The notes beneath the pieces are model-generated. The model worked only from the letters and a program-made list of their open reading frames with translations. It had not been told where the DNA came from and made no database searches. Positions 16,448 through 45,976 of a DNA stretch of 48,442 nt are shown piece after piece (position 1 is the first letter of the stretch; each line of letters opens with the position of its first letter). The translations under genes and the position numbers were made by a program. The stretch comes from an uncultured Candidatus Saccharibacteria bacterium. GTDB taxonomy: Bacteria > Patescibacteriota > Minisyncoccia > Phycocordibacterales > Phycocordibacteraceae. The stretch is from positions 1 through 48,442 of the forward strand of contig CAYIMJ010000001.1 in assembly GCA_964364605.1 (NCBI GenBank). Reading direction: 5' to 3'.

Positions 16448-16526
16448 CCCGTTAGAAATTAGTTTAATAAAGCATTGCTTGTTTTATTTTACACCCCCCC
16501 CCGACAATCTCGCCATTTCTAACGGG
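16448..16526. mobile_element. family-A inverted-repeat mini-element (79 nt) abutting the ppa start codon
   Basis: Arms CCCGTTAGAAAT (16448-16459) and ATTTCTAACGGG (16515-16526). Flanked by the direct repeat ATTCAT (16442-16447 and 16527-16532), which is ATGAAT on the gene strand. Contains a C9 tract at 16494-16502. Confidence 0.75.
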
Positions 16527-16560
16527 ATTCATATGCATCGATTATACATCACTGATACTT

Positions 16561-17928
16561 TTAATCGTCTTTTGCTTTATCACGATCTTCTGTCGCATCA
16601 GCAACAGTCTCATCACTCGCAGGAAGGGGAGTCAATTCCTCTTCAGCAGGAAGAACGGTGGACTGAGGAGCCTCATTAGTAATCATCTCGATGCTCTCAG
16701 TCGGCATGACACCTGCCTCTTCGGCCGGACCTTCGTCGTTGTTCGCAATAACGGCAACTGATTCGCCATTCGATTCAGCGATGTCCTTGCCGCCTGTAGA
16801 AATAATATCGATGTTCCATCCTGTGAGTTTCGCCGCCAAACGGACGTTTTGTCCTCCGCGCCCGATAGCGAGCGACTGTTCGTCCTCGCTGACTGTCACT
16901 GTTGCGCGATGGTCCGCTTCGTTAAGCACCACTTCAGTCGGAGTCGCAGGGGAGAGCGCTTCTTTCACGAATTCCTTCGAATCAGCGTTCCATTCGATGA
17001 TGTCGATGCGCTCACCGCCAAGCTCGCTCATGACCGTCGAAACACGGACACCGCGCTGACCGACGAGAGAACCGACCGGGTCGATGTGCGCTTCGCGAGA
17101 CGCAAGTGCGATCTTGGTGCGACTACCTGGTTCGCGAGCAAGAGCCTTAACCTCGATAGAACCAGCGGCAAGCTCTGGTGCTTCAAGCTCGAAGAGCTTC
17201 ACGACAAACTGAGGATGCGCGCGGGAAAGTCTAAGATATACGCCGCGGAATCCCTCATCGACCACGTAGAGATATGCGCGGATACGCTCACCCATGCGAT
17301 AACGCTCGCCTGGAATTTGCTCCTCGTACGGAATAATGCCAGTTGTGCGACCGAGGTCGACAAATATCGCGCCACGCTCCACACGCTGCACGATGCCGCC
17401 TACGATTTGACCCTTCTTTTCGCCAAATTCTTCCATCATCGAGAGCTTCTCAGCCTCGCGAACCTTCTGGATGACGACCTGTTTTGCAGTCTGAGCTGCA
17501 ATGCGACCAAAATCGTCTTGCTGCTCAAGCGGGAAAATAATATCTTCGCCCACATTCACGCCGCGCTTCATGCGCTTTGCATCGTCGAGAAGAATGTGTT
17601 TTTCAGAATCAAAGCGGGGTAGTTCGCCTTCCGCAAGATGCTCTTCCTCAGTATGGAATGGGTGTGCATGATGATGCTCCTCAGGAATCACTTCATCAGG
17701 TGCAGGAAAACGAACCGTTGTGTCGTCTACGACGGTTTTTACTTGTTCAAAGGAGATTGTGCCGGTGTTGAGATCGAGCTTGGCACGGATGACTTGCCCG
17801 CGCTTGCCGTATTCGCGCTTATACGCGGTCGCCATGGCGCTTTCGATAGCATCGATCATCGTCGCGCGGCTGATGCCTCGATCCTCAAACTCCCCGAGCA
17901 CTGCATTGATAGTCTTTAAATCAATCAT
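16561..17928 (-). CDS. nusA: transcription termination/antitermination factor NusA
   Basis: The N-terminal domain (MIDLKTINAVLGEFEDRGISRATMIDAIESAMATAYKREYG), S1-like and two KH regions (GQRGVRVS..., AIGRGGQNVRLAAKLTGWNIDI), plus an acidic tail. Confidence 0.92.
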   Translation of the reverse strand: MIDLKTINAVLGEFEDRGISRATMIDAIESAMATAYKREYGKRGQVIRAKLDLNTGTISFEQVKTVVDDTTVRFPAPDEVIPEEHHHAHPFHTEEEHLAEGELPRFDSEKHILLDDAKRMKRGVNVGEDIIFPLEQQDDFGRIAAQTAKQVVIQKVREAEKLSMMEEFGEKKGQIVGGIVQRVERGAIFVDLGRTTGIIPYEEQIPGERYRMGERIRAYLYVVDEGFRGVYLRLSRAHPQFVVKLFELEAPELAAGSIEVKALAREPGSRTKIALASREAHIDPVGSLVGQRGVRVSTVMSELGGERIDIIEWNADSKEFVKEALSPATPTEVVLNEADHRATVTVSEDEQSLAIGRGGQNVRLAAKLTGWNIDIISTGGKDIAESNGESVAVIANNDEGPAEEAGVMPTESIEMITNEAPQSTVLPAEEELTPLPASDETVADATEDRDKAKDD

Positions 17929-18133
17929 ATGGAATATGTATGTCGCACTTTTTTAATAAGAAAGCCTGCGGCGCAGGCATTCAATACGGTGTATAATAGC
18001 AAAAAGATACGGTTGCGTCAACTCTGGATGAACTATTTGACTTAATTAAGTAATGATGTACTATCAGATCAGAATTGTTGTTTGACAATGCTCACTTAAA
18101 CGAAACTTCAAACTCGAAAGAAAGGGGTCAGCC

Positions 18134-20056
18134 ATGCAGGTTATACCTCGTGTCTATCAGAAAACAGCCGTTAAGGCTGCTCTCAAAGGACTACGAGGCC
18201 GCCAGAAACGTGCCCTCGTCGTCCTCGCAACAGGTCTTGGTAAAACCTTGACTGCTGCGTTCATCACAAAGCAGTTCCGCGTAAAACGTGTTCTCTTCCT
18301 TGTGCACAACAACTTCATTCTCAAACATGCCCTCGATGAGTTCCGTCTGGTTTTCGACGAGAGTACCAGAATGGCAACTTACAACGGTATGTCAAAGGAG
18401 GGCGCTACTAAAGCGCACATTGTATTCTCAACGTGGCAGACAATGGGTAAAAGTCTCACGCAATGGGCGCGAGACCACTTTGATCTCATCATCGTGGACG
18501 AAGCGCATCATTCCGAAGCCGACACCTATAAACCGGTTCTGAACTATTTCACCGGACCAAAGCTTGGTGTCACCGCGACCCCAGACCGTGAGGACGAAGC
18601 GGATATCCGCGAAGTCTTCGGGCATGAAGTAATCAACGTCACGCTTGAGGAAGCGATCGCTCGCGGATGGCTGCCTCGCATTGAGTATCACGTCATCACT
18701 GACGAGAGTCTCGATGAAGAAGCTCTTCAGAAAATCGCGGCTGAAATCCGCGAAGGAAAGAAGCGCTTCACGATGGCAGAAGTGAATCGGCGTATCTTCA
18801 TCAAGAAGCGCGACGAAGAAGTTGCTCGGATCATTAACGGCTACAACGAAAAGGCTGTGGTGTTCTGCCAATCCATCACTCACGCCGACCGGATGAGCAA
18901 GTCGCTTGATCTGGCGTCAACATTCCATTCCCAAAAGGGCAGCGGGCAAAAAGATACTTGGGATAAAAACCAAGCAACGCTCGATGCTCTGAAGAACGGA
19001 ATCGTCCGTCGTGTGTGTGCGGTAAACGCCTTCAACGAAGGTGTGAACGTACCCTCTGTCGGATTAGTCGCCTTCTGTCGTGTTACCGGGGTCTTGACCA
19101 TCTTCCGCCAACAGCTTGGACGTGGGCTTCGTCCTGGGAAGGACAAGCTCATCGTTCTCGATTTTGTCGGAAATCTTGAGCGCATTCAGTTAGTGCTTAA
19201 GATGATGAACAAGATTTCTGATCTTCACGAGCAGTTTACTCCCAAAGATGAGATTGCACGCGAAGGTTACGTCCGTGAACGCTTCGAAGTGTCAGGAAAA
19301 GGATTTGAGTTCACCTTCTCAGATGAGGTGGTGGACTTGATGAAGATTCTTGAACACTGCGAGCGTGAATTCTATTCAACATGGCAAGAAGCCGGAAAGG
19401 CGGCACAGAAATTGGGTATCAAAACCAAGGAGGAGTATAAGTTACGGTACAAAGAAGATCCGCGACTTTGTAGCCCTAACCATCTCGATTATCGCTACGC
19501 CGACTTCCCAGACCTAGTGACGTTCCTTGGTGGTCAAACAAAGAACTTCTATCCGACGTGGCAAGCTGCATCAAAAGCCGCAAGACGGTTGGGTATTAAG
19601 ACCTCCGTAGAATACAGGTCACGTTACACGGAAGACTCGAGACTCCAAAGTAATGTAAGTAGATATTATAAAGATTTCCCAGGTTGGGATGTCTTTCTTG
19701 GTAATTACTACTACTCAACATGGAAGGAGGCGGGAAAGGCAGCGAAGAAACTTGGCATTAAGACTCAAGTGGAATACGGATTACATTACAAGAAGGATAG
19801 GAGGCTCAATAGCACACCAGGAAGGCACTATGCTGACTTCCCAGGTTGGGATGTCTTTCTTGGTCGTCAACCAAAGAGCCTTTACCCGACGTGGCGGGAG
19901 GCATCCAAAGCCATAGTCGCCCTTGGTCTTACTTCTTCAAACCTCGCACTGGAATACAAGTCACGACGTAAGGAAGATCCGAGACTTCCAAGTTATCCTT
20001 CGGATTCCTACGCTGACTTCCCAGGTTGGAAGAAGTTCCTGCCTAAGTCTCGTTAG
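18134..20056 (+). CDS. SF2 DEAH-box helicase (type III restriction Res-subunit-like) with four C-terminal ~55-aa repeats
   Basis: VLATGLGKTLTA (motif I), IIVDEAHH (motif II), GVTATP (III), QQLGRGLR (VI). The C-terminus carries 4 tandem units: [FY]Y.TW.EA.KAA..LGIKT..EY...Y..D.RL........YADFPGWD.FLG. Confidence 0.85.
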   Translation: MQVIPRVYQKTAVKAALKGLRGRQKRALVVLATGLGKTLTAAFITKQFRVKRVLFLVHNNFILKHALDEFRLVFDESTRMATYNGMSKEGATKAHIVFSTWQTMGKSLTQWARDHFDLIIVDEAHHSEADTYKPVLNYFTGPKLGVTATPDREDEADIREVFGHEVINVTLEEAIARGWLPRIEYHVITDESLDEEALQKIAAEIREGKKRFTMAEVNRRIFIKKRDEEVARIINGYNEKAVVFCQSITHADRMSKSLDLASTFHSQKGSGQKDTWDKNQATLDALKNGIVRRVCAVNAFNEGVNVPSVGLVAFCRVTGVLTIFRQQLGRGLRPGKDKLIVLDFVGNLERIQLVLKMMNKISDLHEQFTPKDEIAREGYVRERFEVSGKGFEFTFSDEVVDLMKILEHCEREFYSTWQEAGKAAQKLGIKTKEEYKLRYKEDPRLCSPNHLDYRYADFPDLVTFLGGQTKNFYPTWQAASKAARRLGIKTSVEYRSRYTEDSRLQSNVSRYYKDFPGWDVFLGNYYYSTWKEAGKAAKKLGIKTQVEYGLHYKKDRRLNSTPGRHYADFPGWDVFLGRQPKSLYPTWREASKAIVALGLTSSNLALEYKSRRKEDPRLPSYPSDSYADFPGWKKFLPKSR

Positions 20057-20074
20057 TGAGTTGCTCTTTGTTCA

Positions 20075-20110
20075 AACGCCGCAGACAAAAAATCTGCGGC
20101 GTTTTCTTTA
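20075..20110 (+). terminator. rho-independent terminator
   Basis: acgccgcag acaaaaaat ctgcggcgt followed by tttctttacc. Confidence 0.75.
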
Positions 20111-20160
20111 CCTTAAAAAATAGGCTTGGGGACAAATCATGATGTAAGATTTACAACACC

Positions 20161-20817
20161 ATGCTCAAAGTTCACTTTGCGTACGATCTCGAGAAAGACG
20201 TGGAGAATTTTCTACGTGGCACTCAGTCAATAAACAACAAAGCTCCTACGAAACTGCAGCGGCTTTATATTGAAAAACACGGTCCTATTTATGATTCAGA
20301 AATCGTAAGGAATTTTATTGAGACCTATATCCAAAATAATCATATTGATCTCTCAAGTTTTGTAACTGCGATGGAACGGGATTGGCGCCCGATAGAGGAA
20401 AACTTTATCTCTAAAACCGAAAAGTTATTCGGCACGACGTATCCGGTCGAATCAATTACGGCTTATCTCTCAACTAACAGCCGTTGTACTTACAATATTC
20501 AGGACAATTACTTTTTTGTATTCTTAAACGCAAAATCACCGAATGCCTATATCATGCATGAGCTTCTTCATTTCTACACGTCATACGCATTGCATGATGA
20601 ATTGATAGGGCAGGGGCTAGACGAGAAGCAGTATAACGATATTAAGGAATCATTGACCGAGCTACTAAATCTTGAATATGTCGATCTAATGGATGGGATT
20701 GTTGATGAAGGGTACTCGCAGCACGTTGCTATGCGAAAAAAGGTCCGTGCACTTTGGTTGGCTACAAAGGATCTCCGAAAGACCGTGCTCGGAATAACAA
20801 CTGAAGACGAGGTGTGA
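20161..20817 (+). CDS. hypothetical protein with HExxH motif
   Basis: YIMHELLHFYT is a possible zincin motif. I recognise no further family. Confidence 0.55.
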   Translation: MLKVHFAYDLEKDVENFLRGTQSINNKAPTKLQRLYIEKHGPIYDSEIVRNFIETYIQNNHIDLSSFVTAMERDWRPIEENFISKTEKLFGTTYPVESITAYLSTNSRCTYNIQDNYFFVFLNAKSPNAYIMHELLHFYTSYALHDELIGQGLDEKQYNDIKESLTELLNLEYVDLMDGIVDEGYSQHVAMRKKVRALWLATKDLRKTVLGITTEDEV

Positions 20818-20871
20818 AATGAACGACTGACTGGGGCCTGGACTAAATTGTTTTGTGACATAATAGTTACG

Positions 20872-22198: not shown

Positions 22199-22268
22199 GT
22201 ATACCCGTGAGATAGCATTTCAATGCAGTGTACAACTCGATAAACATTGGGCATCTCACGGGGTATAC
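22199..22268. repeat. family-B inverted repeat (arms GTATACCCGTGAGAT / ATCTCACGGGGTATAC) upstream of pilB
   Basis: Left arm 22199-22213, right arm 22253-22268, 39-nt spacer. The right arm ends in TATACT (22264-22269), 9 nt from ATG 22279. Confidence 0.75.
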
Positions 22269-22278
22269 TTTAGCGCAT

Positions 22279-28316: not shown

Positions 28317-28324
28317 TAATGCGT

Positions 28325-28438
28325 CCCGTTAGAAATCACGAACACGTCTATCAAAGTGATCACGAAACGTTATGGACCGCAGTAACAAAATAAAATATGA
28401 CACCCTTTATGCGACGTTCGTATTCTATTTCTAACGGG
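28325..28438. mobile_element. family-A inverted-repeat mini-element (114 nt) between the duplicated pgk start codons
   Basis: Arms at 28325-28336 and 28427-28438. Flanks are ATGCGT (28319-28324) and ATGCGC (28439-28444). Confidence 0.75.
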
Positions 28439-29599
28439 ATGCGCAGCGTCCGCGACATCCGACTATTCGAGAATATTCCGATACTCGTTCGGACGGCGCT
28501 CAATGTCCCGATTGAAAATGGGAAAGTCGTCAACGACTACCGATTACGACGCGCACTGCCAACCATTAGATTTCTTTCCGAACGAGGTGCGAAAGTCATT
28601 CTCATCAGCCACATCGGAGAGCAGGGGACTGAGACACTCGAACCGGTTGCGCAAGCTCTCGGGAAACTCATATCCCGAGTCTCGTTCTTCGGTGAGACCA
28701 TCGGGGAGCGGGCCCGAGGAGCCATACGGGAACTTTCGCCAGGAGGCATCCTGGTACTTGAAAATCTCCGCCGCAATAAAGGTGAAGTGATGAATGATCG
28801 AGCCTTCACCAAAGAACTTGCGGCGCTTGCTGACGTCTTCGTTCAAGATTCTTTTGATACTTGCCACCGTCGTCACGCCTCAATCATCGGTGTTCCTGAA
28901 TTATTACCAAGTTATGCCGGACTCCTTCTTGAGGAAGAGATCGAGGAACTTTCGGAAGCGCTCATGCCGAAGCATCCGGCGCTTGCAGTTATCGGCGGAG
29001 CGAAATTCAGCACGAAGGAAGCAGTGCTTACTACGCTTCTCAAAACATATGATCATGTGTTTGTCGGCGGAGCACTTGCCAATGACTTCCTGAAAGCGGC
29101 GGGACAAGGGGTAGGGAAGTCGCTTGTTTCAGGAGCTGACTCAGACTCTATTAAAAAACTTCTCACCAATCCTAAACTGGTATTACCCGTAGACTCGTTT
29201 GTCGTTCCAGCAACGAGCATCGGCGCTTTGAATACGAAAATGAACGCGCGCGTCGCAACTGCCGGACAAGTACGGCCCGATGAAGTCATTCTCGATCATG
29301 GTCCCGGCACTTCAGCACTCTTAGCTAACCTTGCCGAAAAAGCGAAAAATATTCTCTGGAACGGCCCCTTGGGAAATTACGAGCACGGCTTTGTAGATGC
29401 AACCAATGCTTTCGCGCGCGCGGTCGCAGACTCGGGAGCGCACTCGGTCGTCGGCGGCGGCGACACTATCGCAGCGATAGAGAACCTCGGCCTTCTTCCG
29501 CACTTTTCTTTTGTCTCGACTGGCGGCGGCGCCATGCTCGACCTCCTCGCAAAGGGAACTCTTCCCGGCATTGCAGTACTTGACAAAACACACAACTAG
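28439..29599 (+). CDS. pgk: phosphoglycerate kinase
   Basis: MRSVRDIRLFENIPILVRTALNVP..ISHIG...ENLRRNKGE..GGAKFSTK..GGGDT. The conserved N-terminus begins at ATG 28439. In-frame ATG 28397 would add the element-encoded peptide MTPFMRRSYSISNG. Confidence 0.93.
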   Translation: MRSVRDIRLFENIPILVRTALNVPIENGKVVNDYRLRRALPTIRFLSERGAKVILISHIGEQGTETLEPVAQALGKLISRVSFFGETIGERARGAIRELSPGGILVLENLRRNKGEVMNDRAFTKELAALADVFVQDSFDTCHRRHASIIGVPELLPSYAGLLLEEEIEELSEALMPKHPALAVIGGAKFSTKEAVLTTLLKTYDHVFVGGALANDFLKAAGQGVGKSLVSGADSDSIKKLLTNPKLVLPVDSFVVPATSIGALNTKMNARVATAGQVRPDEVILDHGPGTSALLANLAEKAKNILWNGPLGNYEHGFVDATNAFARAVADSGAHSVVGGGDTIAAIENLGLLPHFSFVSTGGGAMLDLLAKGTLPGIAVLDKTHN

Positions 29600-30487: not shown

Positions 30488-32284
30488 ATGTTCCCACTCC
30501 ACGATCCGCTTACTGAACCTCTACGAGCAGAACTTGCATCGTATGACGATCTCACTGCCGCGTTGCTTTCGCGCCGCGGTATCCTGACTAAAGAAGACGC
30601 TGAGAAATTTCTCAACCCCTCCTACGAAGGTCACCTATATGACCCATTCCTGATGACTGACATGAGAAAAGCCGCGGAGCGATTTGCGGCGGCGATTCTC
30701 TCGGGAGAAAAAATTGCAGTATGGAGCGACTACGATTGCGATGGTATTCCGGGTGGCGTACTCCTCCACGATTTCCTCGCGAAAGCTGGTGCGAATTTTG
30801 AAAATTATATTCCGCATCGACATGAAGAGGGGTATGGCATGAATGTGAGTGGAATTGAGAAGCTTGCAAAGAGCGGAGTGAAACTCATCGTGACAGTCGA
30901 CTCTGGTATCACCGATATCGAACCTGTTGCCCGGGCGAAAGAACTTGGCATGGACGTCATCGTAACCGATCATCATTTGCCGGGAGAAAAATTACCAGAC
31001 GCTTTTGCGGTCGTTAATCCTAATGCTCGTCCCGTTAGAGACAAGATGTTGTCAGCATCTGGCTCGCCGGAGGCGAGCGTCTCTAACGGGACAAGTGCCG
31101 ACGAAACGTATCCGTTTCGCAGTCTCTGCGGCTCAGGGGTCGCGTGGAAACTCGTCTGCGCGACTCTCGCGATTGCACCAACTCTTCGCGAGAAGGTACC
31201 CGTCGGATGGGAGAAGTGGCTCCTTGATATGGTCGGTCTCGCAACCATCGCTGACATGGTTCCGCTTGTCGATGAGAATCGCGTTCTCGCGACGTATGGA
31301 TTGAAAGTAATGCGGAAGTCGCCACGCATCGGGCTACAAAAAATGTGCCGCGGAATGCGTGTGGATCAGCGTGCGATTACCGAAGACGACGTCGGGTTCA
31401 TGATAGCCCCGAGAGTGAATGCCGCGAGCCGGATGGGGGACGCACGCGATGCGTTCCGTCTCTTCACGACGACCGATGAAAACGAAGCTGATGAACTCTC
31501 AAAGAAAATGGAGAAGGCGAACCGTCAACGGAAAGCAGAGGCGGGCGCTATCACGCGCGCGGTACACACACGACTCAAGGAACGCGGGGAGGTGCGAAGC
31601 GTCATCGCACTCGGAGATCCCGAGTGGCGCCCGGCGCTTCTCGGTCTTGTTGCAAACACGATTGCTGACGAGTATGAGCGTCCGGTATTTTTGTGGGGAA
31701 GGGAAGGGAACATGCGTCTGAAAGGATCAGTGCGGAGTGGCGGCACGACGCATATTATGGAACTCATGCGCGCGGCAGAAAAAGCATTCGTCGAATTCGG
31801 CGGACATGCGGCGGCGGGCGGTTTTGCCGTCCACGACACTGAAGTATTTTTTCTAGAAGACCGACTCGTCGAAGCACATGCAAAAATACTGGAAGGAAAA
31901 ACCGCTGAAGACAGTCTGGCGATGCGTGCCGATGCGCACATCACACCGGAAGAAGCGACGACGTCATTTCTTTTCAAAGTCGAGAAGCTCGCACCCTTCG
32001 GTCAGCAGAATGCGAAGCCAGTGTTTCTGCTTCGCGAAATTATCGTGCGAGAGATTTCACGCTTCGGAAAAGGGGAGGAGCATTTGAAATTGAAAATAAC
32101 TTCCGTCGAAGGTACTGGACGAAGTGTCGAAGCGGTTACGTTTTTCGTAAAAGGATCGATCGCCCGTGCAGCGGAGAAAATCTCTGCGGGTAGTCGCGTG
32201 AACCTACTTGCACACCTTGAGCGCGACACCTTCTCGCGCGGGAATCCGGTGCGCCTGCGACTTCTCGACATCAAATTGATATGA
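30488..32284 (+). CDS. recJ: single-stranded-DNA-specific exonuclease RecJ
   Basis: DYDCDGI, VTVDSG, VTDHH, GSGVAWKL, IADMVPL (DHH/DHHA1 motifs). Confidence 0.93.
   Translation: MFPLHDPLTEPLRAELASYDDLTAALLSRRGILTKEDAEKFLNPSYEGHLYDPFLMTDMRKAAERFAAAILSGEKIAVWSDYDCDGIPGGVLLHDFLAKAGANFENYIPHRHEEGYGMNVSGIEKLAKSGVKLIVTVDSGITDIEPVARAKELGMDVIVTDHHLPGEKLPDAFAVVNPNARPVRDKMLSASGSPEASVSNGTSADETYPFRSLCGSGVAWKLVCATLAIAPTLREKVPVGWEKWLLDMVGLATIADMVPLVDENRVLATYGLKVMRKSPRIGLQKMCRGMRVDQRAITEDDVGFMIAPRVNAASRMGDARDAFRLFTTTDENEADELSKKMEKANRQRKAEAGAITRAVHTRLKERGEVRSVIALGDPEWRPALLGLVANTIADEYERPVFLWGREGNMRLKGSVRSGGTTHIMELMRAAEKAFVEFGGHAAAGGFAVHDTEVFFLEDRLVEAHAKILEGKTAEDSLAMRADAHITPEEATTSFLFKVEKLAPFGQQNAKPVFLLREIIVREISRFGKGEEHLKLKITSVEGTGRSVEAVTFFVKGSIARAAEKISAGSRVNLLAHLERDTFSRGNPVRLRLLDIKLI
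31029..31092. mobile_element. family-A variant inverted-repeat element inserted in-frame in recJ
   Basis: Arms GTCCCGTTAGAGAC (31029-31042) and GTCTCTAACGGGAC (31079-31092). The core 31031-31090 is 60 nt (20 codons), encoding PVRDKMLSASGSPEASVSNG between the conserved NPNAR and YPF..L.GSGVA. There is an inner hairpin gctcgcc-gga-ggcgagc. Confidence 0.7.
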
Positions 32285-34365: not shown

Positions 34366-35901
34366 ATGAGCTATCTCATCGCCATCGTGTCGGGATTCGC
34401 GAGCGGAGTATTTCTCCGCTCGGTTTTTAGTTTTGGATGGCCAGTAATCTGTTTCGTACTTTTGCTCGCCACGATTCTTTTTGCAGTCCCGAGAGTACTT
34501 GCCGTTCATCCTGCGTACACGCTTGCCCCGTTAGAAATCAGATTTCTAACGGGGCTTGGCGCGGCTTTCTGTATTTTTCTTGCCCTCGGTATGGTGCGAA
34601 GCTCACTCGCCGAGACTCCCTTGCCCGACATCTTCGCAAAAGATCTGCGACATCGCGTTTCCTACGAAGGAGTCATTGTCTCCGATCCTGATGTGCGCGA
34701 CGCGAATCAACGCGTTGAAATTCGTGTGTCAGAAAAAGGTGAGTCGACGACTATGCTCGCGGTCGCACCGCGATATCCGAGAGTTATGGTTGGTGATCGT
34801 GTCTATGTCTCAGGCACACTTCTTGTCCCTGAAGCATTTCTCGATGAGAACGGTCGTGTCTTTCGTTATGATAAATATTTGGAGCGCAGTGGTGTGCGTT
34901 TCATTCTAAACTTTGCATATCTGCGTGTCATCGAGAAAGCTCCTTGGTATTCGATACCAGCTTTACTCGCACGAATAAAACATTCATTCCTCGACGGCCT
35001 CTCGACCACACTGCCTGAACCGTATGCCTCACTTGCTGGCGGTGTCGTGATAGGAGGGAAGTCCGGTCTCGGAAGCGAGCTCAAAGAGGTATTCATTCGC
35101 TCAGGTCTCGTACAGATAATTGTTCTGTCCGGCTATAACGTCATGATCGTTGCTGAGTGGGTCATGGCCGCGCTCACATTTACCAAGCTCAGGAAGCGGT
35201 GGGCGGCAGTGGCGGGTGCGTTTGCAATCCTTATCTTCATCGGTGTCGCAGGAGCTTCCGCGACAGCACTTCGCGCCGCGCTCATGGCATTCATCGCACT
35301 CTATGCGCGAGCAACCGGCCGCACGTATGCAGCTGGTCGCGCATTACTGCTCGTCGTATTTCTCATGCTCGTGTGGAATTCTCTCTATCTCGTTTTTGAT
35401 CCAGGCTTCGGACTCTCGGTAACCGCAACCGCAGGACTCATCTGGCTGGCGCCCCTCATCGAAATCATATTTGCTTTCATGAAAAACGCATTCTGGAAGA
35501 ATGCAATTGCGACAACTCTCGCTGCACAAATCGCTGTCCTACCGCTCCTTTTATATGACACTGGGAACCTATCGCTCGTCGCGCTCCCTGCGAACTTGCT
35601 CGTGATGCCTGTTGTGCCTATCGCGATGGGACTCTCCGCATTTGCCGGTTTCGCAGGAATTATTTTCGGAACATTCGCCCCCATGTTTGCCGTCATGCTT
35701 GCACTGCCGGCATACCTTGCGAATGCGTATCTGATATTCATCGCGCAAGAATCTGCCGCACTGCCTTTTGCGGCTTTTACGCTTCCGTTATTCCCGTTCT
35801 GGCTTGTACTCGCTGCCTACGCGGCACTTATTTATTTCGCTTCATCAAAACGCTTCTCGACAACGCTCCAGTTGAGATTCGCAAAAAAGGCGTCAACATA
35901 A
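34366..35901 (+). CDS. comEC: ComEC/Rec2 competence channel protein (DUF4131 + Competence domains, no MBL domain)
   Basis: OB-like DUF4131 region (YEGVIVSDPDVRDANQRVEIRV..GDRVYVSGTL), then a polytopic region with GLVQIIVLSGYNV, GASATALRAALMA. Confidence 0.85.
   Translation: MSYLIAIVSGFASGVFLRSVFSFGWPVICFVLLLATILFAVPRVLAVHPAYTLAPLEIRFLTGLGAAFCIFLALGMVRSSLAETPLPDIFAKDLRHRVSYEGVIVSDPDVRDANQRVEIRVSEKGESTTMLAVAPRYPRVMVGDRVYVSGTLLVPEAFLDENGRVFRYDKYLERSGVRFILNFAYLRVIEKAPWYSIPALLARIKHSFLDGLSTTLPEPYASLAGGVVIGGKSGLGSELKEVFIRSGLVQIIVLSGYNVMIVAEWVMAALTFTKLRKRWAAVAGAFAILIFIGVAGASATALRAALMAFIALYARATGRTYAAGRALLLVVFLMLVWNSLYLVFDPGFGLSVTATAGLIWLAPLIEIIFAFMKNAFWKNAIATTLAAQIAVLPLLLYDTGNLSLVALPANLLVMPVVPIAMGLSAFAGFAGIIFGTFAPMFAVMLALPAYLANAYLIFIAQESAALPFAAFTLPLFPFWLVLAAYAALIYFASSKRFSTTLQLRFAKKAST
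34526..34554. mobile_element. minimal family-A element (two arms plus 3-nt loop) inserted in-frame in comEC
   Basis: CCCCGTTAGAAAT-cag-ATTTCTAACGGGG, flanked by the direct repeat CTTG (34522-34525 and 34555-34558). Translated as PLEIRFLTG. Confidence 0.75.
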
Positions 35902-38699: not shown

Positions 38700-39371
38700 A
38701 TGGCCACACTCCTTACCTTCGCTATCCTTATCATATCCATCATCGCGCACGAAGTAGCGCACGGGTACGCTGCCAATTCGCTTGGGGATCCGACCGCCCG
38801 CCTCGCAGGACGCCTCACCCTCAATCCGCTCCCGCATATCGACCTCATGGGCTCAATCGTCATTCCCGCCCTCCTTGCTTTCGGGGGTTCGCCGATATTC
38901 TTCGGTTGGGCGAAGCCGGTTCCGTATAACCCCTACAATCTCACGAATCAACGCTGGGGCGAGGCGCTTGTCGCGATCGCCGGCAGCGCGACGAACATCT
39001 GTCTCGCGATTGTGTTCGGACTTTTGGTTCGATTTGGTTCGACATCTGGACTCGATGCGACAACACTTTCTCTCGCCGCTGTCATTGCCTTCGTCAATCT
39101 TTTCCTCGGTCTTTTCAACCTTATCCCGTTCCCACCGCTTGATGGTTTTACCGCCCTGCGTGCCGCACTCCCTTGGAACCTCTCTTCAGACTTGAGTCGA
39201 CTTGAGCACCAAGTTCGTACGGCCGGAATGCTTCCACTTATCCTCTTCCTCATTATTTTCTCCTATATCTTCGCCGGACCGTTCTTCAATCTCGTCGTAT
39301 GGCTCCTCGGACTCATTGCGAGCCACGATATATATGTACTCCTTGGACTCATTGCGAGCAGCGGTATATAG
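38700..39371 (+). CDS. site-2 protease family (peptidase M50) membrane metalloprotease
   Basis: IIAHEVAHGYAANSLGDPTA...GRLTLNPLPHIDLMGS and NLIPFPPLDG motifs. Confidence 0.88.
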   Translation: MATLLTFAILIISIIAHEVAHGYAANSLGDPTARLAGRLTLNPLPHIDLMGSIVIPALLAFGGSPIFFGWAKPVPYNPYNLTNQRWGEALVAIAGSATNICLAIVFGLLVRFGSTSGLDATTLSLAAVIAFVNLFLGLFNLIPFPPLDGFTALRAALPWNLSSDLSRLEHQVRTAGMLPLILFLIIFSYIFAGPFFNLVVWLLGLIASHDIYVLLGLIASSGI

Positions 39372-39385
39372 TGCGATATATGGAT

Positions 39386-39497
39386 CCCGTTAGAAATCGC
39401 GAACGCTGCAATCGAGGAATGGATCCAATTATAAGCTCTAATCGGATAGGGTTCGGCTGCACCGCATCTGGTGTGTCCGCGCCCTATTTCTAACGGG
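39386..39497. mobile_element. family-A inverted-repeat mini-element (112 nt) between duplicated start codons of the DUF3467 gene
   Basis: Arms at 39386-39397 and 39486-39497. Flanks are ATGGAT (39380-39385) and ATGGAC (39498-39503). Confidence 0.75.
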
Positions 39498-39755
39498 ATG
39501 GACTTCAACAAAATCCCCAAGCAATTCTGTGAAAATGTCGTCGCAGGGCACTCCGAAGAAAATTTCGTCATGATTATGAGCGTCGGCGAAACAGCCAATG
39601 CCTACGCACTCACGCCGCCACACATGAAGCGACTCGTGCAGAGCCTCAATCATCAAGTCGAGGAGTATGAGAAAAAGTTTGGCCCTATTCAGGCAAAGTG
39701 GACCCCGGGCATCGAAAGTCCCCTCCAATCGAAAGACATCCGGGGCGATAAGTAA
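39498..39755 (+). CDS. DUF3467 family protein
   Basis: MDFNKIPKQFCENVVAGHSEENFVMIM......LTPPHMKRLVQSLNHQVEEYEKKFGPI fits the DUF3467 pattern. Confidence 0.75.
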   Translation: MDFNKIPKQFCENVVAGHSEENFVMIMSVGETANAYALTPPHMKRLVQSLNHQVEEYEKKFGPIQAKWTPGIESPLQSKDIRGDK

Positions 39756-41111: not shown

Positions 41112-41240
41112 ATCTTCACAGTTCTTGTAACGTCCGTAACAACCTTTTAATTTAATAAGGTGCGGGTGTGTTACTCGGCAATACGCAGTTGTGGCCGTAC
41201 TCGACAACATGATGAGGAATCGGCTGCTATACTGAGGGAG

Positions 41241-41684
41241 ATGGAGTACCATGTGCCGCAATTCATCGAGGTCGAGGACAAGATCATTGGACCATTGACC
41301 TTGCGACAATTCATTTACATCGCCGGTGCGGGCGGACTCTGCGTCGTATTCTTTTCCTATCTGCCGTTCATCGTCGCTCTCCTGTTATCAGCTCCGGTAG
41401 TAGCGCTCGCAGCTGCGCTCGCGTTCTATAAAGTGAATGGGAAATCATTCATCGAGATGCTTGAGGCTGGCTTCAACTACTACACAGGAGCGAAACTATT
41501 CCTCTGGAAAAAACGAGAGCAAAAAGAAGGGGAGCGGAGCGCCGCCGCCGAAGCGGCAGCAGCCGCAGAAATATCTCTCCGCGAGGTTCGCGGCACCCCG
41601 AAGCTTACGAGAGGGAAGCTCTCGGAGCTCGCATGGTCACTTGATGTGAAATCGCAGAATCCTGAACTTCAAACCAAAGAATAA
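41241..41684 (+). CDS. PrgI family (VirB3-like) membrane protein of a Gram-positive-type T4SS
   Basis: MEYHVPQFIEVEDKIIGPLTLRQFIYIAGAGGL followed by two TM helices is the PrgI signature. TATACT lies 7 nt upstream of ATG. Confidence 0.75.
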   Translation: MEYHVPQFIEVEDKIIGPLTLRQFIYIAGAGGLCVVFFSYLPFIVALLLSAPVVALAAALAFYKVNGKSFIEMLEAGFNYYTGAKLFLWKKREQKEGERSAAAEAAAAAEISLREVRGTPKLTRGKLSELAWSLDVKSQNPELQTKE

Positions 41685-41688
41685 TAGT

Positions 41689-42324
41689 ATGGCGACCAAA
41701 CCATCGGGTGCGACACAGCAGTTTGTTCCGGTCAAAGAAATCCGGAACGGGACGATCATCCTTAAAGACGGCGGGTACCGTGGCGTACTTATCTGCTCCT
41801 CTATTAACTTCGGCCTCAAATCAGCGGACGAGCAACACGCGATCACTCTCGGCTTCCAGAATTTCCTCAACACACTCGATTTCTCGATTCAGATTGTAGT
41901 GAACTCACGCAAGATGGACTTGCGTCCCTACTTAGCGCTCCTTGAGGAGAAGGCACCGGAACAAAAAACCGAGCTTATGCGGATCCAGCTGCGCGAATAT
42001 ATCGAGTTCGTCCGCTCTTTTGCCGACCAGGCGAACATCATGACAAAATCTTTCTATATCATCGTGCCCTACGCACCACACGTTTCTGCTACTCGAGCTA
42101 TCAGCTTCCTCCGGCGAGAAAGCGCCGCCACAAAGAATACGGCGGCACAGGCATCCTTCGAACAGGACCGTGCACAACTTGAGCAGCGCCTTTCTCTCGT
42201 CATCGGAGGCTTAGCGGGCACCGGAGTGCGCGCAGTTCCTCTCGGGACCGAGGAAGTGATCGAGCTCCTCTACCGGTCCTTCAACCCGGGAGAGCTCGAA
42301 AATCCTATTCGCTTGGATAATTAA
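41689..42324 (+). CDS. hypothetical T4SS-cluster protein (resembles VirB4/TraC N-terminal region)
   Basis: QQFVPVKEIRNGTIILKDGGYRGVLICSSINFGLKSADEQ..I..GFQNFLNTLDFSIQIVV resembles the N-terminal domain pattern of Gram-positive VirB4-like proteins. Tightly packed between prgI-like and virB4-like genes. Confidence 0.5.
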   Translation: MATKPSGATQQFVPVKEIRNGTIILKDGGYRGVLICSSINFGLKSADEQHAITLGFQNFLNTLDFSIQIVVNSRKMDLRPYLALLEEKAPEQKTELMRIQLREYIEFVRSFADQANIMTKSFYIIVPYAPHVSATRAISFLRRESAATKNTAAQASFEQDRAQLEQRLSLVIGGLAGTGVRAVPLGTEEVIELLYRSFNPGELENPIRLDN

Positions 42325-42326
42325 AT

Positions 42327-44147
42327 ATGTCACTACTCGATTTTCTCACCCGCAAAAAAGAACAGTCTCCGGCGATAACTCCGGTCCTACCGAAAGATAT
42401 CTACCAACAAGGATCCTTGGAGCTCGTCGACACTATCGCCCCAACGGCGCTTAAGATCAGTTCGCGCGAAATCGAGCTCGGCGAAAAATTCGTTCGCACT
42501 TTTTATACCATCTCCTACCCGCGCTTTCTCTCCGACAGCTGGTTCTCTCCCGTCATAAACCTCGACAAGGTGCTCGATATTTCTATATTCATTCACCCGA
42601 TAGAGACTGAGGTCGCGCTGCGCGGCTTCCAAAAGAAAGTTGCCGAGGTTCAGAGCCAGATTGGAGAGAGGGAAGCGAAGGGGCTCGTGCGCGACCCACT
42701 GCTCGATACCGCCTATCAAGACCTTGAGGCTTTGCGCGATAACCTGCAACAAGCTCAGGAGAAGCTCTTTAACGTCGGACTCTATCTCGCCCTCTATGGC
42801 GACTCCAAAGAGGAGATCGATAAGACCGAGGGTGATATTCGCGGAATCCTCGACGCTAAGCTTGTCTACACCAAGCCGGCACTCTTCCAGCAAGAACAAG
42901 GACTTCGTTCCTGTCTGCCGCTCGGCACCGACGAACTTCTCGTGAATTCGAAGCTGGACTCTTCACCCCTCTCCTCGCTATTCCCCTTCGTTTCCTTCGA
43001 CCTCACGAGTGATCGCGGCATACTCTACGGCATCAACCGTCACAACTCCTCGCTCATCCTCTTCGATCGTTTTTCGCTTGAAAACTATAACTCGGTGATT
43101 TTCGCAAAGTCCGGCTCGGGCAAGAGCTACGCGACGAAGCTTGAGCTCCTGCGCTCGCTTATGTTCGGCACCGACATCATCGTCATTGACCCTGAACGCG
43201 AGTATGAGCAGCTCGCGGAAGCGACCGGCGGACGCTCATTCAACATTTCGCTCTCCTCAGAGCACCACATCAATCCCTTTGATCTTCCGCCAGTGAAAGA
43301 GGATGAGGACCCAAAAAATATTCTGCGCTCCAACATCATCGCACTCGTCGGACTGTTCCGTATCATGCTCTCCGGCCTCACACCGGCGGAAGATGCTATC
43401 GTCGATCGCGCCATAAGCGAGACCTACGCACTCAAAGACATCACCGGCGACACTGACTTCACGGGCGCGGAATCGCCATCCCTTTCCGACTTCGAACAGG
43501 TGCTCTCCGGTATGGAGGGCAGCGAGTCACTCGTCGAGCGCCTCTCAAAATACACAAAGGGAACGTGGGCAGGGTTCCTTAACCAGCCGACGAACATCGA
43601 CCTAAAGCAGCAGTTCGTGGTCTTCTCAGTACGCGACATGGAGGACGAGCTCAAGCCCGTAGCGATGTATATCATCACACACTACATCTGGAACGCAGTG
43701 CGCCATGAGCTCAAGAAGCGACTGCTCGTCATCGACGAAGCCTGGTGGATGATGAAGAGCGAAGACACTGCGTCTTTCCTCTACTCGGTCGCGAAGCGCG
43801 GACGCAAATACTATCTTGGCGTCTGCACTATTACCCAAGACGTCGAAGACTTCCTTAAGAGCCCCTATGGGCGGCCGATTCTGACCAACTCTTCTTTGCA
43901 ATTGCTGCTGAAGCAATCTCCAACGACAATCGATGTGCTGAAAGAGACTTTTAATCTTACTGATGAAGAAAAGTATCTTCTTCTTGAAGCCGGAGTAGGG
44001 GAGGGACTTTTCTTTGCCGGATTAAAACATGTCGCCATCAAGATAGTCGCAAGCTACACCGAAGACCAGATAATCACCTCCGACCCATCGCAAGTCCTCG
44101 CGATTAAACAAGAAAAGGATCGCCATGTCCTTGCGCAGAAACAATAA
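42327..44147 (+). CDS. virB4: VirB4/TraC-like type IV secretion ATPase
   Basis: Walker A FAKSGSGKSYATK, Walker B LLVIDEAWWMM, plus the N-terminal VirB4-type domain (TFYTISYPRFLSDSWFSPV). Confidence 0.85.
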   Translation: MSLLDFLTRKKEQSPAITPVLPKDIYQQGSLELVDTIAPTALKISSREIELGEKFVRTFYTISYPRFLSDSWFSPVINLDKVLDISIFIHPIETEVALRGFQKKVAEVQSQIGEREAKGLVRDPLLDTAYQDLEALRDNLQQAQEKLFNVGLYLALYGDSKEEIDKTEGDIRGILDAKLVYTKPALFQQEQGLRSCLPLGTDELLVNSKLDSSPLSSLFPFVSFDLTSDRGILYGINRHNSSLILFDRFSLENYNSVIFAKSGSGKSYATKLELLRSLMFGTDIIVIDPEREYEQLAEATGGRSFNISLSSEHHINPFDLPPVKEDEDPKNILRSNIIALVGLFRIMLSGLTPAEDAIVDRAISETYALKDITGDTDFTGAESPSLSDFEQVLSGMEGSESLVERLSKYTKGTWAGFLNQPTNIDLKQQFVVFSVRDMEDELKPVAMYIITHYIWNAVRHELKKRLLVIDEAWWMMKSEDTASFLYSVAKRGRKYYLGVCTITQDVEDFLKSPYGRPILTNSSLQLLLKQSPTTIDVLKETFNLTDEEKYLLLEAGVGEGLFFAGLKHVAIKIVASYTEDQIITSDPSQVLAIKQEKDRHVLAQKQ

Positions 44148-44871
44148 ACCGTCTCCGCCAGAAGCGATGACATGGGGAAGAGCGCGGCCCGTTCTCGCTA
44201 TTTCTTTCGTATTCGACGCCCTGAGACTCTTCTTTGAGATGTTCTGGTTCTTCGGTCCGGCATTGGCCGCAGCGTATTGCACCTCAGTAGCAAGCGGTAC
44301 CCTGGCGACATGGACGTTCGGGTCGCTGGGAACAAAAGCAGCGGCAGCGGCGTGCTCTACTGTCGCGGCGGCGGGAGGGTCTCTACTTTCGGCACCGCTC
44401 ATTATCTTCGGCACCGTCATGGCAATGGCCGTCGGGCTCTTCGGCTGGCTCACGGTCGGACTTGTGCTCATGATGACTAATTCGCGCATATTCACAGAGC
44501 ATTCCGGGCACTCGCTCATGTCTATCATCGGTCTTGGCGTTTCCGAGTTACCGCTTATAGGAGCGCTTCCTGCGCTCACGGGCACGACATGGAAGATGTA
44601 CCACGCTCAAATCAAGACCGATGCAGAGGCTATGAAGAAATATGAGAAAGAAAATGCCGCCGCGAAATTACAGGAGCGCCGGCAGCAAGCTGCAGAACTT
44701 ATGCAGATTCAGGGAGCTCGCCTAAACCAAGTTCAGCAACAGGACGCCGAGCAGGAAGATGATGAATCCGAAGGCATGCAAACTAATGTGATACGTTTCC
44801 CTTCAGAGAGGGCATACGGGAGTGCGGTTGGGAAACAAAATATCCCCGATGAGATGCGCGAAGCAGCGTAA
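44125..44871 (+). CDS. polytopic membrane protein with C-terminal coiled coil (possible VirB6-like)
   Basis: About 4 TM helices, then a charged Q/E-rich tail. Overlaps the virB4-like 3' end by 23 nt. ATG 44167 is an alternative start. Confidence 0.5.
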   Translation: MSLRRNNKPSPPEAMTWGRARPVLAISFVFDALRLFFEMFWFFGPALAAAYCTSVASGTLATWTFGSLGTKAAAAACSTVAAAGGSLLSAPLIIFGTVMAMAVGLFGWLTVGLVLMMTNSRIFTEHSGHSLMSIIGLGVSELPLIGALPALTGTTWKMYHAQIKTDAEAMKKYEKENAAAKLQERRQQAAELMQIQGARLNQVQQQDAEQEDDESEGMQTNVIRFPSERAYGSAVGKQNIPDEMREAA

Positions 44872-44900
44872 CTACCCTGTGCAGGCTATATACTAGGAGC

Positions 44901-45896
44901 ATGCGTCTCAATCTCCTTACTGCCTCTGCTCTACTTATTCTCATCCTGCCTATCTCTGTCTCAGCGCAATCCCTGGAAAACTCGGCCGGAGATGCGCCCT
45001 TTACAGTCTCAGTAAATCCCCAATACCCGGCACCCTACAGCCAAGCAAGTTTATCCTTCCTTTCAGCCTCTCTTGATCTCACAAATGCGCTGCTCGCTGT
45101 CTCAGTTGCTGGTAAGGAGACCTATCGAGGAACGGTCCAGCCAGTCGGAATCACTCTTGGTAAAGCAGGGAGCGCTACGAATGTAAAAGTGACGATTTCT
45201 TCGGGCGGAGTAAATTATACTCAGACAATTTTTATACAACCCCAGGATGTGGCGATTATCGCTGAACCAATCTCTTCGGCCCCGCCTCTCTACCCAGGAA
45301 CGCCCCTCATACCGCTTGAAGGAAGCGTGCGAGTGGTCGCGGTGGCGAACCTGAGAGACGCAAGAGGGAAGACTCTCGACCCATCGACACTGTCGTACGC
45401 ATGGACGGTCGATACTACACAGATCGCAAACTCATCAGGTATCGGCAAGATGGCAATCATGGTCGCTTCGCCGCTCCAATACCGCGCTCGTTCAGTCTCA
45501 GTTGCAGTTACGAGCCAGAACGGGAGTCTTGTCGGAGGGGCGTCGCTCTCACTCACTGCCAAAGAACCCTTAGTACGTATCTACCGGAATGACCCTCTAC
45601 TCGGCATCCGTTTCAACCACGCCCTCTCGGGAGAATATCCCATCGCCGGCGCAGAGACGGCTCTCTATGCCGCACCGTTCTCACTACCAACTGCCGTCGG
45701 CGCACCACTCCTCCAGTGGTTCTTAGACGGTAGTCCCGCACAGACAGGGAATGCGATAACACTTCGCCCTACGGGAAGCGGCCAAGGGAATGCCTCCCTG
45801 TCGCTCGTAGCATCTGCGGGAAATTCCACGACAGCAACCGCAAACCTATCACTTTCCTTCGGTGCAAAACCGGGCTTTAATATATTCGGCCTATGA
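44901..45896 (+). CDS. secreted hypothetical protein
   Basis: Signal peptide MRLNLLTASALLILILPISVSAQS. TATACT lies 6 nt upstream of ATG. Confidence 0.65.
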   Translation: MRLNLLTASALLILILPISVSAQSLENSAGDAPFTVSVNPQYPAPYSQASLSFLSASLDLTNALLAVSVAGKETYRGTVQPVGITLGKAGSATNVKVTISSGGVNYTQTIFIQPQDVAIIAEPISSAPPLYPGTPLIPLEGSVRVVAVANLRDARGKTLDPSTLSYAWTVDTTQIANSSGIGKMAIMVASPLQYRARSVSVAVTSQNGSLVGGASLSLTAKEPLVRIYRNDPLLGIRFNHALSGEYPIAGAETALYAAPFSLPTAVGAPLLQWFLDGSPAQTGNAITLRPTGSGQGNASLSLVASAGNSTTATANLSLSFGAKPGFNIFGL

Positions 45897-45898
45897 GT

Positions 45899-45976
45899 CC
45901 CGTTAGAAATTCAAAACAATATATGGGTATTAAAAATATGTCGCAACAGGAGCACTCTGACTCTATTTCTAATGGG
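45899..45976. mobile_element. family-A inverted-repeat mini-element (78 nt, open in frame) at the 5' end of the pilin-like gene
   Basis: Arms CCCGTTAGAAAT (45899-45910) and ATTTCTAATGGG (45965-45976). ATGAGT lies upstream and GTGATGA downstream. Confidence 0.7.

Follow-up and report, generated by a model that had tools for sequence, protein, structure and literature searches.

Among the described bacterial repeats, the Correia elements of Neisseria (CREE/NEMIS) first invite comparison with the family reported here, a hairpin-forming repeat with several copies in positions 1 to 48,442 of contig CAYIMJ010000001.1 (GCA_964364605.1) from an uncultured Candidatus Saccharibacteria bacterium; this whole stretch of 48,442 nt is called the window in the following, and copies in it were tallied on both strands. 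Like the present family, Correia elements are small, non-coding and multicopy, with terminal inverted repeats (TIRs) that form RNA hairpins, a short duplication, polymorphism between strains and a position immediately upstream of genes. They carry promoters and are cut by RNase III (PMC10969869). Their termini measure 26 bp (TATAGTGGATTAA...) and their duplication is TA, whereas the element in the window has 13-bp termini and duplicates 4 bp, which places it outside the Correia group; moreover, Correia elements are confined to one genus, whereas identical arms are found across phyla here. Rickettsia palindromic elements (RPEs) are likewise palindromic and mobile, lie in frame within genes, to which they add a peptide, and have no known transposase. 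They are about 100-150 bp long, occur in Rickettsia only and have not been reported at start codons, whereas the family described here includes a minimal copy of 27 nt, has arms that set the reading frame (PVRN...ISNG) and places most of its copies outside genes.

Two further systems show a more partial likeness. REP/REPIN sequences, which are mobilised by RAYT, are short and abundant, form hairpins from inverted pairs and depend on an enzyme encoded elsewhere, but they leave the target unduplicated, keep to extragenic DNA and belong to one lineage and its RAYT; the 4-bp duplications and in-gene copies of the present family do not fit that description. Translational bypass elements (T4 gene 60; the byps of Magnusiomyces mitochondria) are short hairpin inserts in coding sequence with matching flanking codons, whereas the in-gene copies found here are always in frame and open and look translated, unlike bypass elements. 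It is in termini, duplication, spread over phyla, rebuilding of start codons in register, fixed orientation and conserved fold that the family differs from Correia elements and RPEs. A 2024 review of prokaryotic MITEs (short for miniature inverted-repeat transposable elements) nowhere mentions "start codon" (PMC10969869), so that insertion in start register with rebuilding of ATG or GTG is not a described property. A literature search by arm sequence returned nothing relevant (only an unrelated carrot paper), keyword searches brought up no paper on MITEs at start codons or on comparable elements of Patescibacteria, and we found no description, for bacterial mini-transposons, of a start codon rebuilt by a terminal base together with duplicated bases.

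Here, we interpret these repeats as copies of a non-autonomous, hairpin-forming mobile DNA element of a MITE-like superfamily that is present in many bacterial phyla, a reading to which we give a probability of about 0.78 and which builds on directly observed structure, duplication, insertion polymorphism, start-codon register, phylogenetic breadth and in-frame copies. The element consists of two 13-bp inverted termini, Y-CCCGTTAGAAAT...ATTTCTAACGGG-R, with T..A or C..G as the outermost pair, enclosing a variable yet base-paired interior of 3 to ~115 nt. An enzyme encoded elsewhere would insert it at a 4-bp staggered cut, preferably at a target resembling R-T-N-N-A-Y, and leave a 4-bp direct repeat. 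With an end of ...CGGG-A or ...CGGG-G, the duplicated TGNN of a start codon recreates ATG or GTG right after the element, the original ATG with its two following bases stays upstream and opens a short leader open reading frame (ORF; M-x-P-V-R-N...), and at an ATGA stop/start target the stop codon of the upstream gene is kept as well. Being among the few insertions that leave all genes intact, those at starts would accumulate in genomes with almost no intergenic DNA; in-gene insertions would survive only if they are in frame and stop-free, and would then be translated. If this account holds, we are dealing with a mini-transposon that can enter the most crowded genomes without breaking genes, and it would give a concrete answer to the question of how selfish DNA persists in the ultra-small genomes of Patescibacteria.

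Termini, duplications and empty sites

The 12-mer CCCGTTAGAAAT has nine exact matches in the window, where 0.01 are expected and none of 100 shuffles reached nine; allowing up to two mismatches adds the variant arms at 31031/31079 (CCCGTTAGAGAC) and 45965 (CCCATTAGAAAT). This recount agrees with the initial annotation, a reading of the window by itself, which had reported nine exact and four variant arms, all but one solo variant in six inverted pairs. All six loci were read directly and correspond to that description in coordinates and flanks, and it was also correct in stating that the copies at 28325 and 39386 have interior sequence in common (CCCGTTAGAAATCRCGAACRC) and that each arm contains a stop codon in one frame only. 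What its list lacked is a seventh pair, the sister-family copy at 22204-22262. A repeat finder stretches the arms in the window to 14-17 nt.

The anatomy of the element was derived from 128 copies, collected across many genomes. In 120 of them the bases of the 13th pair complement each other (C..G in 71, T..A in 49), so the termini are 13 bp long, and identical 4-bp flanks were found in 74 copies, most commonly TGAA/TTCA (24), TAAA/TTTA (16), TGGA (7), TCAA (7) and TGAG (5). In the flank logo, the duplicated bases start with T and end with A (-5 and -2), often with R before and Y after. Elements range from 27 to 128 nt in size; seven copies are present in this 48-kb contig and as many as 13 in 1.3 kb of another. 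Their interiors vary widely, yet fall into recognisable subfamilies, namely a 93-nt type in Deltaproteobacteria, a GC-rich type of ~66 nt, a type of ~110 nt with a second stem CGCGGACGCG...CGCGTCCGCG, an AT-rich type of ~75 nt and the minimal type of 27 nt with a CAG loop.

A record of insertion comes from L143, a Planctomycetes-like metagenome contig in which 1.3 kb holds at least 13 copies, piled up and nested in each other. Nine nested copies could be peeled off computationally, each leaving a single copy of an identical 4-bp repeat (TTGA, CAAG, CTGG, TCAA, CTTG, CATG and others), and clean nested duplications of this kind are the signature of a transposable element with a 4-bp staggered cut. 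Together with the counts of complementary 13th pairs and identical flanks, they bear out the 13-bp TIR and 4-bp target-site duplication that had been proposed from the window. Piles of at least 10 nested or adjacent copies within ~1 kb were seen at L143 4150-5560 (Ga0114930_10012834), L139 2940-3960 and L148 5990-6920, with arm subfamilies ending in ..AGAAAT, ..AGAAGT and ..AGAGATC.

Insertion polymorphism was read from eight syntenic loci fetched from Kaiserbacteria-like relatives with 78-88% RecJ identity. At pgk, the window reads ATGCG-T(element)A-TGCG-C and two relatives (L122 and L124) a single ATGCGC, while the site is filled in L121, L130 and L131. The interior of the pgk copy in the window matches that of L130, and that of L121 matches L131, with closer relatives being empty, which implies that the site was hit more than once, underwent conversion or lost its element precisely. 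The DUF3467 gene reads a single ATGGAC in L121, L122 and L124, so its insertion in the window is recent; at ppa, which encodes inorganic pyrophosphatase, L124 reads a single ATTCAT (ATGAAT on the gene strand). Comparison with orthologous loci, as suggested at the outset, has thus uncovered unoccupied alleles of pgk, the DUF3467 gene and ppa in which the duplicated bases stand once. The gene of the T4SS-pilin-like protein (pilin gene below) is likewise empty in L124 (ctATGAcaaaa) and filled in L121, where the intact right arm is followed by ATGATGA. At all empty and filled sites the duplicated bases are those of the target, whereas the base abutting the left arm follows the element, being T in the filled and C in the empty sites of pgk and the DUF3467 gene. 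In RecJ, exactly 22 residues between NPNAR and ADETYPF, corresponding to the 62-nt element plus 4 bp, are missing from relatives of 82-88% identity, and other relatives at 78-88% carry the segment. The comEC insertion is shared with L126 only, in which the copy measures 36 nt (L126 15113-15148), and is absent from six other relatives. In old copies the duplicated bases have decayed.

When one genome per species was searched for the exact pair of arms at a spacing of 30-90 nt, at least 120 genome stretches were retrieved, which belong to numerous classes of Patescibacteria as well as to Planctomycetota, Deltaproteobacteria, Gammaproteobacteria, Nitrospirae, WOR-3, KSB1 and further groups. Host genes beside copies in GC-rich contigs (sulfatase, PQQ propeller, secretin) fit hosts outside the Patescibacteria; a BLAST search of plasmids gave no match to the 93-nt deltaproteobacterial family, and viral contigs yielded only three matches. 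The family is not lineage-specific, and identical 12-nt arms span several phyla, which points to a widely transferred enzyme. Hence, the earlier description as a non-autonomous family without a transposase in the window holds, except that the family is not specific to this genome. The same breadth bears on the suggestion, also made there, that the 12-mer is a DNA uptake signal for a competence machinery of ComEC and type IV pilus, arranged in inverted pairs as in Neisseria. The window does encode ComEC and type IV pilus genes, but with one and the same 12-mer in unrelated phyla, target duplications, empty alleles, copies nested in each other and a low density (13 arms in 48 kb), this idea has next to no chance of being correct and was rejected.

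Other known repeat types were compared and rejected as well. Integron attC sites have AAC/GTT facing inward (RYYYAAC...GTTRRRY), whereas the element has GTTAGAA at its 5' end and TTCTAAC at its 3' end, with GTT/AAC facing outward; dif/Xer sites, CRISPR repeats and invertons misfit in box order, spacing or insertion signature.

Copies at start codons and inside genes

Among the 128 copies, 55 (43%) directly precede the start of an ORF of at least 60 codons, which is ATG in 39 and GTG in 16 cases. The rebuilt start is made of the base after the right arm (A or G) and the next two bases, the duplicated TG, and in 33 of the 55 an ATG opens the hexamer that adjoins the upstream arm; a further 18-21 copies also lie within a few bases of the stop codon that closes the upstream gene, ATGA overlaps included. 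The initial annotation had recognised that a terminal A and the duplicated TG rebuild ATG, which is seen in the 39 copies, and this can be extended to C..G termini, which rebuild GTG in the other 16. It had also named the disappearance of the start-codon association on a wider tally as an outcome that would speak against its interpretation; on the tally given here, the association is kept.

The share of copies at starts depends on terminus and host. It amounts to 39 of 49 (80%) for T..A termini against 16 of 71 for C..G termini, and to 25 of 42 in loci labelled Patescibacteria against 7 of 33 in other phyla (Fisher p = 0.001). On a crude gene map, start-codon sites of suitable form number 19-37 in the window and intergenic sites of the preferred type 266-980, yet four of its five copies outside genes sit at starts. 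The called genes of the syntenic locus L121 leave ~480 nt between them in 21.8 kb (~2%) when elements are not counted, so that selection alone could account for much of the start excess in tiny genomes. Overall, the excess probably reflects purifying selection together with target preference.

Several target genes have no conventional leader. The genes of Pgk, the pilin and T2SSF (L131) overlap the previous gene or follow it by 0-3 nt, and in ppa and the DUF3467 gene the ATG is preceded at 6-8 nt by a -10-like box (TATAGT, TATAAT or TACAAT), both in the window (39344-39382; 16533-16560) and in L121, L122 and L124. Boxes as close as these suggest leaderless transcripts in this lineage, and for the DUF3467 gene the position of its TATAGT at 39367-39372 suggests the same. 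At the pilin gene of the window, flanked by ATGAGT and GTG-ATGA, the left TGAG (45894-45897) preserves the stop codon TGA of the upstream gene; the right arm, with one change (ATTTCTAATGGG), leads into G-TGAT-GA, with GTG at 45977 and ATG at 45980.

The start-codon copies are not bound to one length class, with 23, 20 and 12 of them in the three classes modulo 3. Their leader ORFs terminate anywhere from 7 to 92 nt ahead of the real start, and a termination-reinitiation design was rejected because of this scatter. For annotation, the consequence is that start codons are miscalled inside the element: the Pgk of L130 (8375-9580) was called from a start within it and has 401 residues instead of 386-387, being 14 residues too long.

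About 27 distinct copies lie within long ORFs, all of them in frame and free of stops. Most of them read PVRN...ISNG and the others PLE...FLTG, corresponding to the two stop-free frames of the arms, and their lengths are 27, 36, 39, 45, 48, 51, 57, 60, 63, 66, 69, 72 and 105 nt. All five filled recJ orthologues have kept the 60 nt, and a second 27-nt in-frame copy was found at the RecJ C-terminus of L132 (11657-11683, SPIRNQISNG). As judged from these open frames, in-gene copies are probably translated, as are those of RPEs, and the element accounts for many lineage-specific PVRN...ISNG loops in proteins.

A further reading is that the inserted segment is skipped during expression, either by ribosomal take-off and landing between the duplicated codons, as had been proposed, or by excision from the RNA, which would leave the protein unchanged. 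Duplicated codons do flank the hairpin (ATG-AAT...ATG-AAT; CGT...CGC), a stable stem would bring the two junctions together, and the structure is conserved in the recJ copy. Splicing or ribosomal bypass is nevertheless disfavoured by the frames and open reading of the in-gene copies and by the occurrence of start-codon copies in all length classes; the retention of the 60 nt in recJ and the decay of duplicated bases in old copies count against it too, and we consider skipping very improbable.

Flanks, orientation, fold and the search for an enzyme

A passive, symmetric element that makes a simple 4-bp duplication does not account for everything seen, and the observations of this section on flanks, starts, orientation, fold and enzyme weigh against our interpretation in that form. 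Such a duplication predicts identical flanks, but they are non-identical in 54 of the 128 copies (42%); about seven copies look like 3-bp duplications, and TTTA is paired with TGAA in eight. In addition, at least nine copies in unrelated genomes have AC(T/C)TGT before the upstream arm and no duplicated start codon. This hexamer stands directly outside one arm in L020, L022, L031, L036, L041, L086, L088 and L093, in several cases 7-9 nt downstream of a -10-like box, and its reverse complement follows the recJ copy of the window (31091-31096). An exact empty site for the ACYTGT flank was not obtained from the relatives of the L031 Smc gene, which are too diverged (~63-70% identity).

Mismatched flanks would be expected from a mini integrative element moved by a site-specific recombinase of the tyrosine type, in which case the flanking repeats would represent the overlap region. 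The excised circle would then carry right arm, 6 bp and left arm in this order, and non-matching flanks would be coupling sequences from the donor. Two inverted arms of 12-13 bp that enclose a spacer of 6 bp, R-TNNA-Y, are arranged like a core site, the non-identical flanks are drawn from a small set of preferred 4-mers, and an asymmetric overlap region would fix the orientation. On the other hand, the duplicated bases at pgk, the DUF3467 gene and ppa (TGCG, TGGA and TGAA) are those of the target, the base beside the left arm belongs to the element and not to the target, and the nested copies present many different clean 4-bp repeats; an overlap of 4 bp is also untypical of tyrosine recombinases. 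At the pilin gene the flanks TGAG/TGAT are imperfect. We regard a recombinase of this kind as improbable, and donor coupling sequences as an equally improbable source of the mismatches.

With regard to start codons, the share of copies at starts outside the Patescibacteria (21%, in Planctomycetes and Deltaproteobacteria) seems higher than selection alone would produce. This leads to the notion that the integrase itself actively selects the DNA of translation starts, for example by recognising A/G-TG-R-R beside an AT-rich or melted promoter region or with the help of a host factor, so that the position at codon 2 would be set by the insertion machinery and not by selection. It would agree with the 80% of T..A-type copies at starts, with the 21% in large-genome phyla, where by our own estimate start sites should make up ~2% of usable sites, with the two interior types at the pgk start, whose distribution does not follow RecJ relatedness and suggests repeated hits, and with the several targets that are leaderless starts with a -10 box 6-9 nt upstream. 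Many copies, those of the C..G type especially, are located instead at TTTA/TAAA sites in intergenic DNA, in genes or in other copies, selection could yield both the orientation bias described below and the start excess, and we know of no enzyme with this behaviour; active homing is therefore put forward tentatively, as a possibility that we find less than convincing.

The third point concerns orientation. An internal motif R-Y-GGG-R, a degenerate copy of the right-arm end that is mostly located in the first third of the interior, is in sense to the downstream gene in 28 of the 55 start copies and antisense in one (28:1), and a TAnnnT box follows it within 6 nt in 10 sense and no antisense copies. 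Since symmetric termini should insert both ways, either the survivors have been filtered for a directional function or insertion is itself directional; going by this bias, surviving copies would have to supply directional expression signals.

All copies of the window fold with a long closing stem, with z-scores from -1.1 to -8.2 that are strongest in the two in-gene copies (recJ -7.2, comEC -8.2). The recJ copy adopts a Y shape of a 13-bp stem and two 7-bp hairpins, for which the five genomes provide the variants AGATGTT/AGCATCT, AGGCACC/GGTGCCT, AGATGCC/GGCATCT, AGACATC/GATGTCT and AGACACC/GGTGTCT. In these five sequences 10 of 27 pairs have changed on both sides, 97% of cells are paired compared with 33-45% when the partner is slid, and none of 500 shuffles reached the observed covariation; the encoded peptide changes while compensatory changes keep the hairpins. 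The second stem of the ~115-nt type covaries too (G-C versus A-U), and the filled pgk and pilin copies have kept their arms (one base is changed in the pilin copy of the window), with strongly diverged interiors. The right flank of the recJ copies has drifted from a direct repeat of CTCG toward the reverse complement (ACGAG, L130 10604-10609, compared with the window and L132), with Thr-Arg still coded, and it looks as if the stem is being extended into the flanks.

Orientation bias, intact arms around diverged interiors and compensatory changes in hairpins are all unexpected for a passive symmetric MITE. The initial view of a MITE-like family is confirmed by empty sites, duplications and nesting, but it predicts neither the orientation relative to genes nor the compensatory fold. 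A leader module exapted by the host could explain both, with the element retained because the downstream gene comes under the control of its folded RNA; the module could serve as a stabilising 5' stem-loop, as an RNase III site or insulator, as a stem that hides the start until the leader is translated, or as carrier of an internal promoter. Besides the covariation in recJ and in the ~115-nt type, the near-unchanged arms at pgk and the pilin gene and the one-sided motif and TAnnnT box, this would be in line with a stem that takes in the A of the start codon and the preceding 12 nt, and with the documented promoters and RNase III processing of Correia elements (PMC10969869). Against it, a scan for sigma-70 promoters and terminators yielded no excess over shuffles, the stops of the leader ORFs are scattered, G-U and A-C cells are balanced in the recJ copy with no strand favoured (our own count), and no Rfam family overlaps any element at E up to 10, with only tRNAs reaching the gathering score. 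We consider an exapted leader possible, though doubtful.

Both notions can be combined into a structure-dependent mobile module that homes to translation starts across phyla and then serves as a portable 5' leader, and not as a passive MITE, which appears rather unlikely to us. The same low expectation applies to its parts, according to which the old start would drive a short leader ORF through the left arm, with a fold maintained by the host through compensatory evolution, and, just as uncertainly, the stem and the internal decoy motif would gate the rebuilt start or provide processing or promoter functions. If true, this would amount to a mobile cis-regulatory cassette for leaderless and translationally coupled genes; in any case, orientation bias and conserved fold offer a testable case for mobile hairpins recruited as expression signals of such genes.

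Returning to the non-autonomous MITE-like element, four of five MITE features were found, namely inverted termini, a fixed-length duplication, a small non-coding multicopy nature and empty-site polymorphism. The fifth, an autonomous element with the same termini and a transposase, was not. No transposase domain was detected in the window or in the Pfam annotation of the syntenic locus, and the 0.9 Mb surrounding 120 genome copies, examined for long-range arm pairs and over ~8 kb around short copies, yielded no autonomous partner. Arm pairs 511-571 nt apart in metagenomes proved in all 25 cases to be two neighbouring short elements, again with no autonomous partner. ORFs adjacent to unpaired arms included no transposase, only housekeeping families emerged when 665 ORFs were all compared with each other to find a protein that recurs beside copies, and Pfam analysis of genes beside element piles gave sulfatase, secretin and similar proteins, and no transposase. 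The L143 pile disrupts the C-terminal relic of an rve-type transposase (...FRERYNMIRPHWAL...), which was rejected as partner because it is itself a target of the insertions.

As for the class of the enzyme, piggyBac elements duplicate TTAA and have the termini CCCTAGAAAGATA, and members of the related bacterial IS1380 family make duplications of 4-5 bp and have ends beginning with CC. The 4-bp T..A duplication and the 13-bp ends (CCC at the start, TAGAAA) presumably recall these two groups, a likeness that we follow as a lead only; a duplication of 4 bp and ends of the form YCCCG would also fit elements of the IS1380/piggyBac type. Unlike in those groups, no transposase of any kind was found beside these termini, and unlike the TTAA of piggyBac, the target is degenerate (TGAA, TAAA, CTTG, CATG and others), while the likeness of the termini is short and could be due to chance. 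The mobilising enzyme may be a transposase of the DDE type, an assignment that amounts to a guess.

Copies and further features of the window

Pfam identified pyrophosphatase, NusA, triose-phosphate isomerase, Pgk, RecJ, ComEC, a DUF3467 protein and the T4SS-pilin-like protein near the copies, whose coordinates, including the 13th bases of the arms in the main family, are compiled in Table 1.

Table 1. Element copies, flanking duplications and solitary arms in the window
Feature	Position (nt)	Strand	Details
ppa start-codon copy	16447..16527	-	81 nt including 13th bases
ppa duplication TTCA (gene strand TGAA)	16443-16446, 16528-16531		flanks ATGAAT/ATGAAT
ppa start codons	16447-16445, 16532-16530		working ATG; vestigial upstream ATG
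pgk start-codon copy	28324..28439	+	116 nt; flanks ATGCGT/ATGCGC
pgk duplication TGCG	28320-28323, 28440-28443		old ATG 28319-28321; rebuilt ATG 28439-28441
recJ in-frame copy	31030..31091	+	variant arms CCCGTTAGAGAC/GTCTCTAACGGG; DHH domain, RecJ residues 182-201
comEC minimal copy	34526..34554	+	two arms and CAG loop; in frame as APLEIRFLTG
comEC repeats CTTG	34522-34525, 34555-34558		flanks GCTTG/GCTTG
DUF3467-gene start-codon copy	39385..39498	+	114 nt; flanks ATGGAT/ATGGAC
DUF3467-gene duplication TGGA	39381-39384, 39499-39502		old ATG 39380-39382; rebuilt ATG 39498-39500
T4SS-pilin-like gene copy	45898..45977	+	80 nt; at ATGA stop/start overlap with 44901-45896 gene
Sister-family copy	22204-22262	not assigned	59 nt; arms CCCGTGAGATAG/CATCTCACGGG; intergenic
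Sister-copy flanks GTATA	22199-22203, 22263-22267		direct repeats
Solo sister-type left arm CCCGTGAGATAT	2186..2197	+	GTATA just before; right arm not recognised
Solo arm-like sequence CCCGTTAGTCAA	32725..32736	+	within 35-nt spacer before 32757 ORF; no partner arm

The sister copy is located 16 nt upstream of the ATG of a pilB-like gene at 22279, and its arms differ from those of the main family at position 6 and at the partner of this position, both of which are altered; the same arm type occurs in L121 at 9883. The solo arm-like sequence before the 32757 ORF is a possible remnant. Within the arms of the pgk copy there is a second stem, CACGAAC..GTTCGT, and the recJ copy with its flank encodes 22 extra residues (PVRDKMLSASGSPEASVSNGTS). 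On the gene strand, the interior of the ppa copy contains a run of nine G followed by a -10-like TAAAAT; on the forward strand this appears at 16478-16500 as a nine-C run abutting the -10-like TGTAAAAT. Changes in the length of such a homopolymer beside a promoter-like box could switch expression.

Some genes of the window deserve mention for their domains. The ORF at 6347-7042, encoding 231 residues between tRNA-Arg and tRNA-Gly, has an N-terminal helix-turn-helix with a weak, sub-threshold match to that of the Sleeping Beauty transposase and a LAGLIDADG-like stretch (FIAGLMLYWGEGDK); it was assigned to no family. A helicase of the ResIII/DEAD type at 18134-20056 has at its C-terminus the "integrase repeat unit" (PF14882) in three copies. 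At 41160-46675, and likewise in the syntenic loci, PrgI-like, TraC-like, VirB4/TraG-like ATPase and T4SS-pilin-like genes form a conserved cluster beside the type IV pilus and ComEC genes. Finally, perfect palindromes of 16-18 nt with loops of 0-3 nt, unrelated in sequence to the arms, were observed at gene ends (3465-3503, 5104-5135, 12465-12501 and 13286-13319) and are probably terminators.

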